A stretch of DNA of 64,000 nucleotides, taken from Escherichia phage FEC14. Positions 12,823 through 51,500 of the stretch are shown here, in pieces. Position numbers and translations under genes: made by a program. Where the stretch lies: sequence record MG383452. The stretch is one strand, 5' to 3'. Each line of letters begins with the position of its first letter. The first letter of the stretch is position 1. The notes beneath the pieces are model-generated. The model was not told the DNA's origin and ran no database searches. It saw only the letters and a program-made list of their open reading frames with translations.

Positions 12823-12871
12823 ATAAATTGGCGGTATAATTGCCGCCTAACCCCATAATGAGACAAATAAC

Positions 12872-13096
12872 ATGGCAAATGAAATTGGTGATATTGCCCA
12901 GTTCCGTGCTATTTCACGCCGCCTGAAATCGTATGGACTCGTCATCGAAGAAATAGATGAAGATGTTCAGGGTGTATTGGAAGGGATGTTTGGGAGTACC
13001 GTTGGAACGGAATTATTTGAACTTTTAAAGATGGCAGCTGATAACCAATTTGTTGAATATATTTCTGAACACGCTATTGATGGCCTGAATAAATGA
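12872..13096 (+). CDS. hypothetical small protein
   Basis: 74-aa ORF. Confidence 0.4.
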   Translation: MANEIGDIAQFRAISRRLKSYGLVIEEIDEDVQGVLEGMFGSTVGTELFELLKMAADNQFVEYISEHAIDGLNK

Positions 13097-13329
13097 ACGA
13101 GTTATATGAATTTGAACGCGTGTATGAGTCCGCTTCAGTTTCAGGATACATGAAACGATTATATCAAGAAATCTGTGTTCGTTTGATGATGCGAGGAATA
13201 TCTGTCAATTGTGTTATGGCACAGACAGACAGTTTTATTATGACACTCACTGACCATCGCCAGAATATGTGTATCATCCAGGTTAGCTGTGTCAACAACG
13301 AAATTATACAATGGAGACGTTACGCATGA
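13093..13329 (+). CDS. hypothetical small protein
   Basis: 78-aa ORF; start overlaps the upstream stop. Confidence 0.4.
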   Translation: MNELYEFERVYESASVSGYMKRLYQEICVRLMMRGISVNCVMAQTDSFIMTLTDHRQNMCIIQVSCVNNEIIQWRRYA

Positions 13330-30162: not shown

Positions 30163-30163
30163 G

Positions 30164-30376
30164 TCATTTACTCATCAGTGAAAGAAGATTGACTTTATCT
30201 GAACGTGCGTTTGGTGAGTAATGCACGTCCTGAGAGTGCCTCTTACAGCACGGACAATCCTTGGTGGCAATTACACAGGGAGCCTTATCCACGGCATATC
30301 CGGCTTCTTCGGCTTCCTTCACGGTGTTAAATGGCAAGTATGCACTTGTGCCTTGCCCTCCGCATGAACATTCCAT
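30164..30376 (-). CDS. small cysteine-rich protein
   Basis: 'MECSCGG...CPCCKRH' in 70 aa. Confidence 0.4.
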   Translation of the reverse strand: MECSCGGQGTSAYLPFNTVKEAEEAGYAVDKAPCVIATKDCPCCKRHSQDVHYSPNARSDKVNLLSLMSK

Positions 30377-30576
30377 TAGAAATCCTCCTTGGTAATGAAG
30401 AGCAAATCAGATTTCAGATTTTGGCGCTTGACACGGCGGACATGTCGATGCTCCTTTTTAATACCGTCTGAACGTTTTGATTTAGAGCGGCGATTTTTGT
30501 ATGTGTCCGCTGGGTACTTGTCATGGCCTGGACAACAAGATCCAGGGTAGTAAACATCCAAGATTTCCCGTTTCAT
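30376..30576 (-). CDS. small basic protein
   Basis: 66-aa Lys/Arg-rich ORF. Confidence 0.35.
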   Translation of the reverse strand: MKREILDVYYPGSCCPGHDKYPADTYKNRRSKSKRSDGIKKEHRHVRRVKRQNLKSDLLFITKEDF

Positions 30577-30688
30577 TAACGTTTCCTCTTAAATGGGATG
30601 ATCAGGGCTATGATTAACAGCATAGCTGTGATCACTCCGCATGCGATAAGACCGAATGCAAATGCTTTCAAAACAAATTGTAAAAGAA

Positions 30689-46739: not shown

Positions 46740-47546
46740 ATGAATTTACCATCATTGCCCAAAACTGAGAGAACACATAAAAGTGATTTCTGGCCGACTG
46801 TGATCAAATACCGCGCCTTTACAGCAGGGCAACAGACCATGTTACTTCAGGTTGCTGATCCGAACACTCCTATGAGTGAGCGCGTGGCAACATTGGAGCA
46901 ACTATTTGACAGTTGTGTTGATGCTGGCGTTCCCTTTAGTAAACTGCCAATCGGTGTTACTGAAGAAGTATTTTTAAAGATGCGCTGTATATCTATCGGC
47001 GAGGTCATGAAGATACGTTACAAATGTAATAACAAAGTTCAAGCCGAAACCAATGAAGGTGGTGAAGAACCAGTTTCTGGCCTTAAAGATTGTGGTCAAG
47101 AGCTTGTGTTACCGATCCCGCTCAATCAAGTAAAATGCGTGTCCCCAGAAGGCTTCAGGGAGACGTTTGATCTACCAGGTGGTTATCATATAAAGATGCG
47201 CCAGCCGTCCTTCTCGGATGCCTCAGTGCTTAATGAAGCATCCTCTGTTGAACAAATGATTGCCACCTTTATCGATTGTCTGTATGACGACGATGGTCAG
47301 GTTTGGAAGGTGGAAAATCCGGCTGAACCTGGTATCGATCCAGAAGTTGCTAAAGAACGCCAACGCATTAAGGATGAATTTGTCAAATGGGTTGGGGACA
47401 ATATTGAATCCGAGATTGTTCAGGACATTTCGAATGATTTCTTTAAAAAGATTCCGCGTATTCGTTACGCGACAAAAATTAAATGCCCTTCGTGTGGGAA
47501 AGAACACGAAGTCAAATTTAACAGTGTCACTGAGATTTTCATTTAA
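46740..47546 (+). CDS. late protein with C-terminal zinc ribbon (possible baseplate assembly protein)
   Basis: 268 aa; C-terminal 'KCPSCGKEHE'; late promoter box upstream; 'GGAGATACATT' before ATG. Confidence 0.5.
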   Translation: MNLPSLPKTERTHKSDFWPTVIKYRAFTAGQQTMLLQVADPNTPMSERVATLEQLFDSCVDAGVPFSKLPIGVTEEVFLKMRCISIGEVMKIRYKCNNKVQAETNEGGEEPVSGLKDCGQELVLPIPLNQVKCVSPEGFRETFDLPGGYHIKMRQPSFSDASVLNEASSVEQMIATFIDCLYDDDGQVWKVENPAEPGIDPEVAKERQRIKDEFVKWVGDNIESEIVQDISNDFFKKIPRIRYATKIKCPSCGKEHEVKFNSVTEIFI

Positions 47547-47694
47547 TTTTTGAAATTGATTTACTCTCCTATTTTGTGATGTGTGACGAATTAAAGGCAC
47601 ACGGCTATAGCATATTTGAAATCAGTGAATCGATGCCGTGGCATCTTGATTTGCTTACCGAGACACTGAAAATTAGATTGTCTAAGAAATCTTC

Positions 47695-47722
47695 CAACCC
47701 CACGTAATGTGGGGTTTTCTTT
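47695..47722 (+). terminator. rho-independent terminator
   Basis: 'aaccccacgtaatgtggggtt' followed by 'ttctttg'. Confidence 0.6.
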
Positions 47723-48064
47723 GCTTACCTGTATTACCGTTTAAGAAAGGATTGTTTAACCCGAAATTGCTATAACACCATTGTTCCTGATATGAATGTT
47801 GTGTAAATCTGTTTTGAATTTGTTTTGAAACAAAAATAATGCTTTTCTACGCATGTTCTGAGGTGTACAGTATTTTCCTCGCCTTTATGCCTCCATGGCA
47901 TTGGAATGGGACTGCCTGTCAAGGCGGTGTTACGAGCTTCAGCGAGTAGGAACGAAAAGAATAAAGGTTGAACGGAAGCAGAGCTTCCTATAATATATTA
48001 TTCGACAGATTTCAAATCCCCGCCATAAATATCACATGATTCTAATTGACTAATGGGTTTCAAT

Positions 48065-49678
48065 ATGTTAGACAACTTGCGTTGGTTTTACGGGCGCGTT
48101 GAAGACGTGAATGATCCCGATCAAAACGGGCGCGTCGCAGTACGCATCTATGGGGTACACACGGAGGATACCACTCTCCTGCCTACCGAATTATTGCCTT
48201 GGGGTAAAATGCTTATGCCAGCATCTAACGCCTCCTCGGCAGGTTTAGGCTGGTCTCCGACGGGTATCACTGTCGGCTCTGACGTTATGGGGTTTGCTTT
48301 GGATGAAGCATATCAGAACATCCGTATTGCATGGGTATGGCCAGCAGCAACACCAACAGATGGGTCAGATACAAACCCATTGGCGCTGGGTCAGGTCGTT
48401 CAATCTATAGAAAGGCAGAAGTATAATGCCGTCGAGAATGTTCCTGTTAAGATTGAGGATGAACCACAACCGGATCCACAACCACCAGTAGACGGATATG
48501 ATCCTGAGAAGTGGATGACCGTGGCTCGTGGGGAATTGGGTGTCAAAGAATATTCTGGTAAGTTCAATAACAACCCAAGGATATTGGAATATCATAAGAC
48601 AACTTCCCTGGGGGCTTCAGAAGATGAAGTTAGTTGGTGCGCGTCGTTTGTCGGATGGGTTCTGATACAGGCCGGATATACATCAACACGTTCTGCTTTG
48701 GCTCGTTCATATTTACAATGGGGATCTCCTCTGTCAGAACCACGTTACGGCGCTGTTGTTGTATTCCGGCGTGGGAACAACCCAACATTTGGTCACGTCG
48801 CATTCGTTCAGAAATTTGACGCCAACTACGTCTGGTGTATCGGGGGAAACCAATCCGATTCTGTGAAGGTGAGTCGCTTCAGCCGCTCATCTGTGTTGGG
48901 TTATCGTTGGCCTGGTCCTGCTACGACAGCATCGGCGGCTCCTGCGCAACAAAATGGTAAATGGTCTGAGCCAATCCCTGATCGTACACCAAAAGTTCAG
49001 GAAACTCCGCCTCCTTCTGGCCGTGTTCAGGATATTGACAACACAGGAGAGGTATCGGTTCCTTCGGCTGGAGGGTCTCGTTATCCATACAACAATGTTA
49101 TGGCTTCTCGAGCTGGGCATATTATGGAGGTCGATGACACTCCAGGCGGGGAACGTTTGCATTGGATGCACTCTTCTGGGTCTTACAAGCAAATGCTTCC
49201 TGACGGTGATGTTGTTAATAAATCAGTCAAAGATCATTATGACCTGACGATGTTCGACAAACGTTATTATGTGGGGGGTGATCATAACCTGACAATTGGT
49301 GGGACTGAAGTACAGCGCAAGAAAGGAGAAGTTTACCACTTACACTCTTCTAACTATTCCAATGTGGTCGCTGGAACAGCGTTGATGAAATTTTCCCAAT
49401 TGGCTGAGATACAGGCACAGAACGTGTTGCGTCTCATCTGTGAAATGTTGGAAGTTTCCAATACTTTGAAAGTGCCTAAAATACTGGCTAGTGAAATAGT
49501 TTGTGATAAGTTGTCGGTGGCGCAGACTATTGAAGGCAACATCAAATATGCTGAAGGCGCTGGTCGCGCCGCCTCACGTGCGGGGGCAACTCCTGTAACA
49601 ACTACAGGCCCAGGTCCAATTGATATAAAACCGGAGTTAGAGGATAACGGTGGCAATTTTGGTGGTAAAGGCGCATGA
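48065..49678 (+). CDS. baseplate hub/central spike protein (gp5-like) with CHAP peptidoglycan hydrolase domain
   Basis: N-terminus 'MLDNLRWFYGRVEDVNDPDQNGRVAVRIYGVHTED' parallels the T4 gp5 OB domain; CHAP-like 'SWCASFVGWVL...GHVAFV'. Confidence 0.65.
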   Translation: MLDNLRWFYGRVEDVNDPDQNGRVAVRIYGVHTEDTTLLPTELLPWGKMLMPASNASSAGLGWSPTGITVGSDVMGFALDEAYQNIRIAWVWPAATPTDGSDTNPLALGQVVQSIERQKYNAVENVPVKIEDEPQPDPQPPVDGYDPEKWMTVARGELGVKEYSGKFNNNPRILEYHKTTSLGASEDEVSWCASFVGWVLIQAGYTSTRSALARSYLQWGSPLSEPRYGAVVVFRRGNNPTFGHVAFVQKFDANYVWCIGGNQSDSVKVSRFSRSSVLGYRWPGPATTASAAPAQQNGKWSEPIPDRTPKVQETPPPSGRVQDIDNTGEVSVPSAGGSRYPYNNVMASRAGHIMEVDDTPGGERLHWMHSSGSYKQMLPDGDVVNKSVKDHYDLTMFDKRYYVGGDHNLTIGGTEVQRKKGEVYHLHSSNYSNVVAGTALMKFSQLAEIQAQNVLRLICEMLEVSNTLKVPKILASEIVCDKLSVAQTIEGNIKYAEGAGRAASRAGATPVTTTGPGPIDIKPELEDNGGNFGGKGA

Positions 49679-50925: not shown

Positions 50926-50926
50926 G

Positions 50927-51160
50927 TTATGCTCCTATTACGTGCTGTTTGGCTTGTTCATAGGCTGTGCGGAGTTCAAGATAAGAATCTGCCAACAACG
51001 GTGATTTGTCGTTTTTCCGATTCATGATTATTTGGTGGTTAACGACAGCACGGCGTAATCTGAGTTCTGCCACCCAGAATGCTTTTTGTTTTGCGTGTCC
51101 TGGACGGGCGCGTAGGTCGTGATAATGCATAGAAGCATGATATATTTCAGAGTTGGTCAT
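50927..51160 (-). CDS. hypothetical small protein
   Basis: ATG preceded by 'AGCAGGAACTATATC'. Confidence 0.45.
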   Translation of the reverse strand: MTNSEIYHASMHYHDLRARPGHAKQKAFWVAELRLRRAVVNHQIIMNRKNDKSPLLADSYLELRTAYEQAKQHVIGA

Positions 51161-51237
51161 GATATAGTTCCTGCTATTCAATTTGTGGCGTTTGCCAATA
51201 AATTACTGGGAAGTATAGGCGGAAAGGTTTCAAAAGT

Positions 51238-51260
51238 AAAGCCCCTCATTGAGGGGCTTT
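51238..51260. terminator. rho-independent terminator
   Basis: 'aaagcccctcattgaggggcttt', 7 nt downstream of the glutaredoxin gene stop. Confidence 0.6.
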
Positions 51261-51266
51261 GAAAGA

Positions 51267-51491
51267 TCAGCGTTTCAAACTTGCGGCGAGTCCAGTAACG
51301 TCGGTCACGGTTTGATCAGCCAGGACAATCACGGGCATAGACATGCGCTGTTTACCAGTGATTTTCTGTAATTCTTCCAGCTTGTAATCTTTGTCTAGCT
51401 TCAGAATTTGGTGTTCAATACCGCGAATGCGACAGATGTTTTCAGCTTGTAAACATTGCGCACAACCTTGTTTGGAATAAATCGTAATCAT
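51267..51491 (-). CDS. glutaredoxin/thioredoxin-like protein (NrdC/NrdH-type)
   Basis: 74 aa, 'CAQC' redox motif near the N-terminus; adjacent to nrdB. Confidence 0.65.
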   Translation of the reverse strand: MITIYSKQGCAQCLQAENICRIRGIEHQILKLDKDYKLEELQKITGKQRMSMPVIVLADQTVTDVTGLAASLKR

Positions 51492-51500
51492 TTCTCACCT

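Follow-up and report, generated by a model that had tools for sequence, protein, structure and literature searches.

A candidate RNA leader upstream of gp5 in Escherichia phage FEC14 and its paralogues at two further operons of Ackermannviridae

Three conserved cassettes per genome

The intergenic region between the gp26-like and gp5-like baseplate genes of Escherichia phage FEC14 (positions 47,547 to 48,064 of a stretch of 64,000 nucleotides from sequence record MG383452, referred to here as the window) contains a coding gene, a terminator, a late promoter, and a conserved, structured cassette on the sense strand that is present in three copies per genome, an inventory that is firmly supported by sequence comparison. 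The cassette may represent a structured RNA leader that acts in cis and heads three operons; its transcription and function are predictions, and the chances that this interpretation is correct are about even. In the databases searched, the cassette is restricted to Ackermannviridae. A first-pass annotation of the window had proposed that the region encodes a small structured RNA or a regulatory leader, which holds for the 3′ two-thirds of the gap but not for the 5′ third, which is occupied by a protein-coding gene and a terminator. The proposal is supported by approximately 110 to 150 nucleotides (nt) that are as conserved as the flanking coding sequence, by compensatory changes, by strand-specific G·U pairs, and by the existence of paralogues.

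The region 47400–48200 shares 99.8% identity with Salmonella phages PM10, 3384-D8, and KE31 in a sequence search, and the window is assigned to Kuttervirus (Ackermannviridae) by its identity of ~99.8% to PM10 and KE31. The same region matches 285 phage records, almost all of them Ackermannviridae (Kuttervirus, Agtrevirus, Limestonevirus, Taipeivirus, and Miltonvirus). Cross-genus comparison was based on an alignment of nine genus-level representatives of the family. As expected from the first-pass annotation, the cassette is conserved in relatives: positions 47850–47949 are 76–78% identical across genera, which is at the level of the flanking genes gp26 and gp5 (62–78%); the spacers on either side show 46% (47800–47849) and 40% (48000–48049) identity. 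The elements of the cassette (approximately 47832–47994) are as follows:

47832–47851, + strand: 5′ box AAAAATAATGCTTTTCTACG / AAAAAnnnnnTTTTC, recognized in the alignment and common to all three cassettes of a genome
47885–47953, + strand: core of the covariance model (pseudoknot, P3, and P4), the only copy in the window
47887–47909, + strand: putative H-type pseudoknot formed by helices S1 (47887–47891/47897–47901) and S2 (47893–47896/47906–47909), with predicted geometry
47911–47928, + strand: hairpin P3, 7 bp, with a variable loop and a conserved internal U·G wobble, based on covariation and fold
47932–47947, + strand: hairpin P4, A-C-[GA]-G-C / loop / G-C-[GA]-G-U, containing tandem G·A pairs; no other part of the cassette is conserved as widely
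47968–47994, + strand: terminal hairpin composite TTGAAC-[GGAAGC-AGA-GCTTCC]-TATAAT, a terminator/promoter composite resembling promoter-early stem-loops (PeSLs)

In P4, the nucleotides GAGC...GCGA are invariant, and the loop varies between UUCA, GAA, GUA, AUA, AAC, and a long inserted hairpin. An A+T-rich spacer separates P4 from the terminal hairpin (GGAAGC-AGA-GCTTCC, 47974–47988), which directly abuts the TATAAT box reported in the first pass (47989–47994) and has an invariant CCTATA(A/G)TAT on its 3′ side. Unpaired nucleotides of the cassette, such as UUGGAA, are also strongly conserved. Insertions and deletions of 1–2 nt and the loss of the ATG codons of small annotated open reading frames (ORFs) indicate that the cassette is non-coding.

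A BLAST search with positions 47888–47936 located a second site in each genome, upstream of the gp6 baseplate wedge gene (cassette B). In phage 38 (KR296692.1), this copy lies in a divergent intergenic region that heads the operon of gp6, tail-spike, neck, terminase, sheath, and head genes (~40 kb) and includes an additional 15-bp hairpin in which the tandem G·A motif occurs twice. SP38_47, a “hypothetical protein” on the minus strand whose annotation spans cassette B in this phage, is probably spurious. A covariance model built from the window copy (cassette A) and cassette B scored 81 bits (E = 4e-20) in the window, where the next match reached 8.6 bits, and 73.7 bits at cassette B. A weak third match of the model in phage 38, upstream of gene 45 (sliding clamp; ~65.1–65.4 kb), identifies cassette C. 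This shorter copy shares the 5′ box and P4 with the other two; it also has the P2 hairpin of cassette B, here 13 bp long with a pair of tandem G·A motifs, but neither the pseudoknot nor P3. It is 74–79% conserved in Limestonevirus and Taipeivirus, with compensatory changes, and has a counterpart in LIMEstone1. The real start of gene 45 in phage 38 is probably an ATG (MQEITLSERTLQLLANFETI) located 91 nt upstream of the annotated coding sequence.

Whole-genome searches with specific patterns recovered exactly three cassettes per genome; a generic scan for tandem-G·A hairpins was too permissive for such a count (120 matches vs. 97 ± 10 in shuffled sequences). All three cassettes point into the downstream operon, and within 50–90 nt downstream of each lies a hairpin together with an ATAAAT(A/G) box. 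Their presence not only upstream of gp5 but also upstream of gp6 and gene 45 therefore suggests a shared control module for three operons.

Covariation supports a fold on the sense strand

The fold was tested on aligned copies A and B (21 sequences), using helices S1 (AUGCC/GGCAU), S2 (CCAU/AUGG; pseudoknotted with S1), P3 (7 bp), and P4 (A-C-[G·A,A·G]-G-C). Pairing is possible in 97% of the 399 cells of this alignment, and five pairs, spanning 28 cells, are altered on both sides. The observed covariation score was reached by none of 500 shuffles, and a control with partners shifted by 1–3 columns left only 30–48% of the cells paired.

Between paralogues A and B, S1 shows replacements of A-U by C-G and of U-A by A-U, and one of its pairs reads U-A (11 sequences) or A-U (10 sequences), depending on the paralogue. 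In S2, an A-U pair (14 sequences) is replaced by C-G (7 sequences) in Taipeivirus and CRW-SP2. Both helices covary, as expected of an H-type pseudoknot, which should be sterically feasible with loops of 1 nt (L1) and 4 nt (L3). P3 is paired in 100% of the cells, with double-sided changes in two pairs and single-sided changes in two others, and folds with −11.1 kcal/mol (z = −3.7). The flanking pair of P4 covaries from C-G to U-A, and P2 of cassettes B and C covaries too. The terminal hairpin (−8.1 kcal/mol, z = −3.0) occurs with four compensated stems: GGAAGC/GCTTCC, GGATGC/GCATCC, GGCTGC/GCAGCC, and GGCGGC/GCCGCC. G·U pairs account for 42 of the 399 paired cells, and the U·G pair in P3 is kept in 19 of 21 sequences; because G·U pairs become A·C mismatches on the opposite strand, the fold belongs to the sense strand. 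The combination of folding and conservation that the first-pass annotation had recommended as a check thus recovers conserved, covarying helices across genera, but the folding energy of the whole region is ordinary (z = −0.68).

Complementary segments that had been noted previously (GAGCTTC at 47934 and GAAGCAGAGCTTCC at 47975–47988) are present, but their long-range pairing is specific to Kuttervirus. GAGCTTC/GAAGC and the minimum-free-energy pairings UUUCUAC/GUAGGAA and CUGAGG/CUUCAG were rejected, as they are not conserved beyond Kuttervirus and CRW-SP2, and a hairpin P1 (CUG...CAG, 47859–47871) shows only wobble-type changes and has no thermodynamic support.

A comparison with Rfam, also recommended with the first-pass annotation, assigned no family: a cmscan of 47300–48300 against Rfam 15 (E ≤ 10) returned only four snoRNA-type chance matches, each far below threshold, and a scan of 11 related loci at gathering thresholds returned no match. 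No tRNA or tmRNA was detected in the window. Resemblance to a hepatitis delta virus-like ribozyme (GGAAUGGGAC) has no covariance-model support, and the same applies to a hammerhead (CUGAGG...GAAA), whose core is not kept in Taipeivirus. A compact fold followed by a hairpin would be compatible with a riboswitch, but the baseplate and clamp genes suggest no ligand, and no known class fits. No paper describing the cassette was found in the library searched. With its conservation and covariation, the cassette is a candidate for a new RNA family.

An ancient core with a later addition

Miltonvirus MAM1 and Nezavisimistyvirus phiEa2809 possess a version resembling cassette C (P2, P4, hairpin/TATAAT, and late box) upstream of gp5. 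The absence of the pseudoknot and P3 from both genera indicates that these elements are not essential to the ancestral function. In the distant Vibrio phage K361, which keeps the layout of gp26, small ORF, terminator, gap, and gp5, only GGGGU-GA-GC-GAA-GC-GA-ACCCC (GGGGTGAGCGAAGCGAACCCC) is retained, directly after a TATAAT box and 20 nt before the gp5 start. The occurrence of P4 in MAM1, phiEa2809, K361, and cassettes B and C identifies this hairpin as the ancient core, and judging from its distribution, the pseudoknot–P3 module is an addition in Kuttervirus, Aglimvirinae, and Taipeivirus.

In IMG/VR, the core pattern is present only in contigs of Ackermannviridae, twice per genome; in JGI metagenomes, it occurs only two times. 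GTDB genomes yielded nothing beyond two chance matches, and a blastn search did not find the cassette in E. coli genomes. A 17-mer, GGTGAGCGAAGCGAACC, is present in 64 highly diverse viral contigs of IMG/VR, including metagenome-assembled genomes of giant viruses; it is mostly intergenic and often forms the tip of a long G+C-rich hairpin or directly follows a TATAAATA-like box. Some of the G+C-rich contigs share a longer repeat (...GGTGAGCGAAGCGAACC-GAGGnCGAGGAC...CGAAGCC), at times twice per contig. No Rfam family was matched.

Possible function and alternative explanations

The locus can be interpreted as four layers of control. In the first, the gp51-like gene (47546–47707) would be translationally coupled to gp26, and in the second, the intrinsic terminator T1 would end the gp26/gp51-like transcription unit. 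In the third, a cassette RNA would be made from the TGnTATAAY box at 47768–47776 or from a start near the 5′ box, and the cassette would act in cis on transcription entering gp5; the G·A hairpins would most likely bind a factor or RNA polymerase, deciding between a stop at the terminal hairpin and read-through. In the fourth, the late promoter at 48024–48031 would yield a late gp5 mRNA with a short leader, bypassing the cassette. The specific mode of action, a control of termination and read-through at the terminal hairpin as in the put and nut leaders, is at best a tentative proposal.

A more far-reaching and unlikely possibility is that the cassettes constitute an undescribed class of cis-acting elements that couples the operon of gene 45 with those of gp5 and gp6, either as an antitermination RNA or as an R-loop/hairpin site for loading of the gp45 clamp. 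In the former case, antitermination could be either independent of proteins or dependent on a phage factor, involving put-like elements with tandem-G·A hairpins and a pseudoknot. In the latter case, selected late promoters would become partly independent of replication forks. In either form, such an element would provide the first handle on early and middle regulation of ViI-like phages.

Several observations weigh against a cis-acting RNA leader. Because the late promoter is located downstream of the cassette, the main late mRNA of gp5 would not contain it. The candidate promoter of the cassette RNA is weak in FEC14 (TATAAC, without a conserved −35), an obvious sigma-70 promoter is lacking at cassette B, and the terminal hairpin is followed by a U-tract (UAUAAUAU) that is poor for an intrinsic terminator. 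The fold of the entire cassette is no better than that of shuffled sequences in copy A (z = −0.68); that of copy B is moderate (z = −2.3). Neither the pseudoknot nor P3 is universal, as they are missing in Miltonvirus and Nezavisimistyvirus, and the P4 tips of many relatives correspond exactly to the “mini-hairpin DNA” consensus GCGNAGC, which fits a role at the DNA level. The covarying pairs stem from few events in a shallow phylogeny, and sequence exchange between copies A and B (one genome has the same P3 variant in both) inflates the cell counts; the covariation statistics therefore overstate the number of independent observations. A search of the literature for transcriptomes, transcription start sites, and small RNAs of Ackermannviridae found nothing relevant.

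Alternatively, the cassettes might be genes of trans-acting small RNAs, each encoding a stable RNA of ~150–210 nt with its own promoter that ends at the following hairpin and acts on a target or protein of the host or the phage; their position at operon heads would then reflect only the available intergenic space. The conserved −10-like box upstream and the conserved, covarying hairpin downstream agree with this scenario, as do the concerted evolution of the three paralogues, the strong conservation of unpaired nucleotides (UUGGAA) typical of partner-binding RNAs, and the location of the late promoter, which excludes the cassette from the 5′ untranslated region of the late mRNA. However, three copies at operon heads, all in the same orientation and each followed by a late-type box, are unlikely to arise by chance. 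Moreover, the P4 hairpin of K361 lies within the gp5 leader and is not followed by a terminator, the terminal hairpin lacks a proper U-tract, and neither a complementary target nor a host homologue was identified. A trans-acting role is considered rather improbable.

A signal at the level of DNA would involve hairpins of the plus strand in single-stranded or supercoiled DNA that serve as a site for priming, as an origin, in R-loop formation, or in loading of the gp45 clamp. Such a role would explain why the P4 tips of most relatives are exactly the mini-hairpins GCGAAGC or GCGTAGC and why one of the cassettes precedes the clamp gene (gene 45). All G·A pairs occur in the context Y-GA-R, which favours sheared tandem G·A pairs, an A+T-rich stretch and a late-type promoter box come after every cassette, and the hairpin-containing 17-mer of the 64 viral contigs is mostly intergenic. 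By contrast, covariation in a pseudoknot and conservation of an internal G·U (G·T) wobble are typical features of RNA rather than DNA, and the tips of P4 in the window (GCTTCAGC) and in several Taipeivirus copies (GCAACGC or GCATAGC) deviate from the mini-hairpin consensus. T4-type phages are not known to need a hairpin for priming. A DNA-level signal appears as improbable as a trans-acting RNA.

The same low probability is assigned to plain promoter and terminator DNA, in which blocks of promoter or protein-binding sequence and PeSL-like terminating hairpins are homogenized by gene conversion and the fold functions only in termination. TTGAAC-N15-TATAAT with a stem-loop in the spacer fits a described PeSL subclass, and the sequence exchange between copies, the weak folding z-score, and the presence of hairpins at other intergenic boundaries of the genome (e.g., 61649) are all in line with this explanation. 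However, gene conversion cannot account for the coding-like conservation of each copy across genera or for compensatory changes in five helices, and conservation does not extend to the −35-like hexamer. The tens of PeSL copies in a genome are situated in hyperplastic regions, but the cassettes number only three and stand at core operons; other late promoters in the window are not preceded by a cassette. If the cassette were only promoter and terminator DNA, it would represent ordinary intergenic architecture.

Unrecognized genes for small proteins downstream of T1 in the gap can practically be dismissed: the 36-aa ORF 47839–47949 and the 32-aa ORF 47895–47993 are both annotated as hypothetical proteins in KE31 and PMBT18, but Vi01 (AATAATCC), Taipeivirus, and CRW-SP2 (CCCTGG in the latter two) lack their ATG codons, the frames are broken by indels of 1–2 nt, and substitutions show no three-base periodicity. 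Neither these ORFs nor the minus-strand ORFs of the gap are conserved.

Genes, terminator, and promoters surrounding the cassette

The remaining features of the locus, including the flanking genes, are as follows:

46740–47546, + strand: gp26-like baseplate hub gene, the upstream neighbour (Pfam T4_baseplate PF12322, E = 1e-51; PHROG phrog_150 “baseplate hub”)
47546–47707, + strand: small conserved gene for a putative gp51-like “baseplate hub assembly catalyst” homologue, based on protein-level conservation and PHROG matches
47632–47645, + strand: palindrome GATGCCGTGGCATC, incidental inside the small gene (codons S-M-P-W-H-L)
47696–47725, + strand: intrinsic terminator T1, a G+C-rich stem of 8–9 bp followed by a T-run, based on fold and compensatory changes
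47768–47776, + strand: extended −10-like box TGCTATAAC (TGTTATAAT or TGCTATAAT in other genera), a conserved island in a diverged spacer
48024–48031, + strand: T4-type late promoter box CATAAATA, with ATAAATA invariant in nine genera
48065–49678, + strand: gp5-like baseplate hub/cell-puncturing protein with a CHAP domain (Pfam Gp5_OB, CHAP; PHROG phrog_430)

The gap is one of approximately four stretches of at least 450 nt without an ORF of at least 90 aa in the 64-kb window. The other three (12823–13310, 30163–30688, and 50926–51500; ~490–575 nt) contain no copy of the cassette that is detectable with the covariance model. The first-pass annotation had considered the gap as ~500 bp of non-coding sequence with no credible ORF on either strand; this description applies to 47708–48064 (~357 nt) but not to 47546–47707, where the first ~160 nt are a conserved reading frame whose product is matched along its entire length by PHROG phrog_9633 (E = 5.6e-37).

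The frame of this small gene opens with the last base of the stop codon of the upstream neighbour, which is annotated as gp26 in relatives. It is conserved at the same position in nine genera of Ackermannviridae and in Vibrio phage K361, and the first 160 nt of the gap are the best-conserved part of the neighbourhood (86–88% identity vs. 62–78% in gp26 and gp5). The homologues comprise 48–58 aa and share the sequence (M/I)FE(I/T/V)DLLSYFVMCDELKxHGYSIFEIxESMPWHLDLLTExLK... in every genus. Six of seven homologues match phrog_634 “baseplate hub assembly catalyst” (T4 gp51 family; best E = 5e-08, E = 0.0016 for the protein of the window); the match is limited to positions 60–107 of the 121 positions of the profile and does not amount to full-length similarity to T4 gp51. 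No Pfam family was matched by the protein, which is annotated as hypothetical in the records of Det7, KE31, PMBT18, and LIMEstone1.

In Aglimvirinae and K361, the ATG of the small gene overlaps the gp26 stop codon (TAATG). The corresponding codon is ATT, ATC, or ATA in Kuttervirus, Taipeivirus, Miltonvirus, and phiEa2809; in Kuttervirus, it is AUU (UAAUU), with no AUG (window positions 47544–47580). The gene has 53 codons if counted from this AUU and 42–43 codons from GTG 47576 or ATG 47579. The ten codons that follow the start position stay open and show only synonymous or conservative changes. Despite the missing AUG, this pattern suggests that ribosomes either reinitiate at a near-cognate codon after termination or begin at GTG/ATG 47576/47579. 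A fusion of gp26 and the small ORF by −1 frameshifting was rejected; reinitiation is the likelier explanation because a canonical slippery heptamer is absent and the ATG overlaps the stop codon in Aglimvirinae and K361.

The palindrome reported previously is present but does not represent an independent signal, because its arms consist of the ATG-CC and GG-CAT codons (ATG-CCN-TGG-CAT) of the invariant MPWH motif; a function as terminator or operator was rejected, as the palindrome is a by-product of these codons. Among the features named in the first pass, neither the palindrome nor the long-range complementarity is more than incidental. The arms of pseudoknot helix S1 (ATGCC...GGCAT, 47887–47901) are also found in the MPWH codons (47633–47644), 250 nt upstream, which is probably a coincidence.

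T1 is located close to where a terminator hairpin had been reported and overlaps the stop codon of the small gene. The hairpin (47696–47716; AACCCCAC-GTAAT-GTGGGGTT, followed by TTTCTTTGCTT) has a 9-bp stem with five G-C pairs and a downstream TTCTTTGCTT, features typical of an intrinsic terminator, and its RNA folds with −13.2 kcal/mol (z = −3.9). The stem shows compensatory changes between genera (CCCCAC/GTGGGG, TCCCGC/GCGGGA, and CCCCGC/GCGGGG), and a terminator is annotated at this position in the records of LIMEstone1, Magnus, and Mutine. On the basis of these features, T1 is assigned as a genuine intrinsic terminator of the gp26/gp51-like unit. Directly after T1 lies a conserved box (47722–47746; CTTAnnTGTnnnAnnGGT), a near-palindrome TTAAC-TGTAAAACAG-GTTAA in Agtrevirus. 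It precedes the TGnTATAAT box by ~25–50 bp and is a possible site of protein binding.

The extended −10-like box at 47768–47776 follows the consensus TGnTATAA(T/C) across genera and is a candidate promoter of the cassette RNA; TATAAT boxes likewise precede the hairpins in phiEa2809 and K361. The 5′ box was rejected as a general promoter motif (4 matches in the whole genome vs. 4.0 expected).

The late-promoter-like box of the first pass, CATAAATA, was located 33 nt before the ATG at 48065 and fits a TATAAATA-like −10 element. The late-promoter word is rarer than expected by chance in the window (5 occurrences vs. 10.9) and also precedes other virion genes; in the record of LIMEstone1, the box is labelled “putative late promoter”. 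For phage AG3, late promoters in front of gp5 and gp6 have been predicted (PMC3121705), and homologues of gp55, gp33, and gp45 have been reported for CBA120, ViI, and AG3 (PMC3184105). The record of phage 38, a near-identical match to the window, lists genes for gp55 and gp45. Judging from the element itself and these two genes, 48024–48031 is assigned as the T4-type late promoter of gp5. The gp5 protein probably starts at ATG 48065, which yields the N-terminus MLDN(L/M)RWFYG in all genera and is preferred because it is the only ATG common to all of them; the usual annotation (ATG 48053; MGFNMLDNL...) would then begin 12 nt too far upstream.

Implications for annotation and phage biology

The Ackermannviridae include widely used biocontrol and therapy phages (ViI, CBA120, Det7, LIMEstone, and relatives), and their records can be improved at several points. 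The conserved gp51-like gene is absent from many records of the family, including those of Vi01 and CBA120; in Kuttervirus, where the start is apparently non-AUG, most records omit the gene or begin it at ATG 47579. The start of gp5 should probably be moved 12 nt downstream of its common annotation. Two GenBank entries labelled “Enterococcus phage Efm 3-10” (OR844942.1 and OR844944.1; UNVERIFIED_ORG) share 98–100% identity with Kuttervirus in the regions compared and are almost certainly mislabelled or contaminating contigs of Salmonella phages. In the record of phage 38, many core genes, including those of DNA polymerase, gp6, gp18, gp20, gp23, and gp46, are split into pieces, which suggests frameshift-type sequencing errors rather than biology.

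Comparison with known systems

The position of the small gene immediately 3′ of the gp26-like gene resembles that of gene 51 in T4, which lies directly downstream of gene 26, and the matches to phrog_634 point in the same direction. By contrast, T4 gp51 is much longer than the 48–58 aa of the homologues, which match only part of the profile and have no AUG at the start position in Kuttervirus.

The T4 genes e, soc, and 49 are transcribed into long and short mRNAs that differ in their 5′ structure, with the long leader sequestering the ribosome-binding site. The late promoter of gp5 is likewise located near the gene and downstream of a longer leader that would originate from an upstream promoter. 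However, 75–180 nt separate the conserved structure of the cassette from the start codon, and identity in the spacer between them is only 40%.

PeSLs of T4-type phages combine a stem-loop with a sigma-70-like promoter; they are present in ~50–100 copies per genome, are concentrated in hyperplastic regions next to ORFans, and exchange sequence among copies (PMC2839356, PMC4122927). A subclass with the stem-loop between −35 and −10 has been described (PMC2839356). The composite TTGAAC-[hairpin]-TATAAT at 47968–47994 is similar, with a stable, covarying hairpin abutting the TATAAT, and the copies of the cassette also exchange sequence. The three cassettes nevertheless fall short of the high copy number of PeSLs, precede the core genes gp5, gp6, and gp45, and comprise ~110 nt of additional conserved structure. 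The spacer has 15–16 nt, and TATAAT/TATAGT is conserved but the −35 is not (ATGAAC, CTGAAC, TACAAC, or AAGAAC in other genera); a promoter scan did not call TTGAAC-N15-TATAAT.

Mini-hairpin DNA (GCGNAGC) is extraordinarily stable and has been found at initiation sites of phage replication and transcription (PMC13037366). The P4 tip conforms to this consensus (GCGAAGC/GCGTAGC) in most relatives, comprising copy A of Aglimvirinae, most copies of cassettes B and C, and K361, and it is flanked by further G·A pairs of the sheared type. By contrast, the P4 tip of the window (GCTTCAGC) corresponds neither to GCGNAGC nor to GCGNNAGC, and the pseudoknot and the G·U pairs point to RNA.

The put RNAs of HK022 and the nut sites of lambda are cis-acting antitermination leaders that occur in several copies per genome and head long operons. 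The cassettes resemble them in being paralogous copies at the heads of long operons, in the same orientation as the operon, and in the presence of hairpins with conserved non-Watson–Crick internal features that are followed by terminator-like hairpins. Unlike put and nut, the cassette comprises a pseudoknot and tandem G·A pairs and has no sequence or model similarity to Rfam families; the analogy, drawn for a T4-related phage family, is one of position, orientation, and copy number only. According to the founding genome papers, ViI-like phages lack MotA and AsiA, and no early or middle promoters had been identified in them (PMC3184105). The cassette, located upstream of three key operons (clamp, gp5 hub, and gp6 structural genes), is a testable candidate for this missing regulatory layer.

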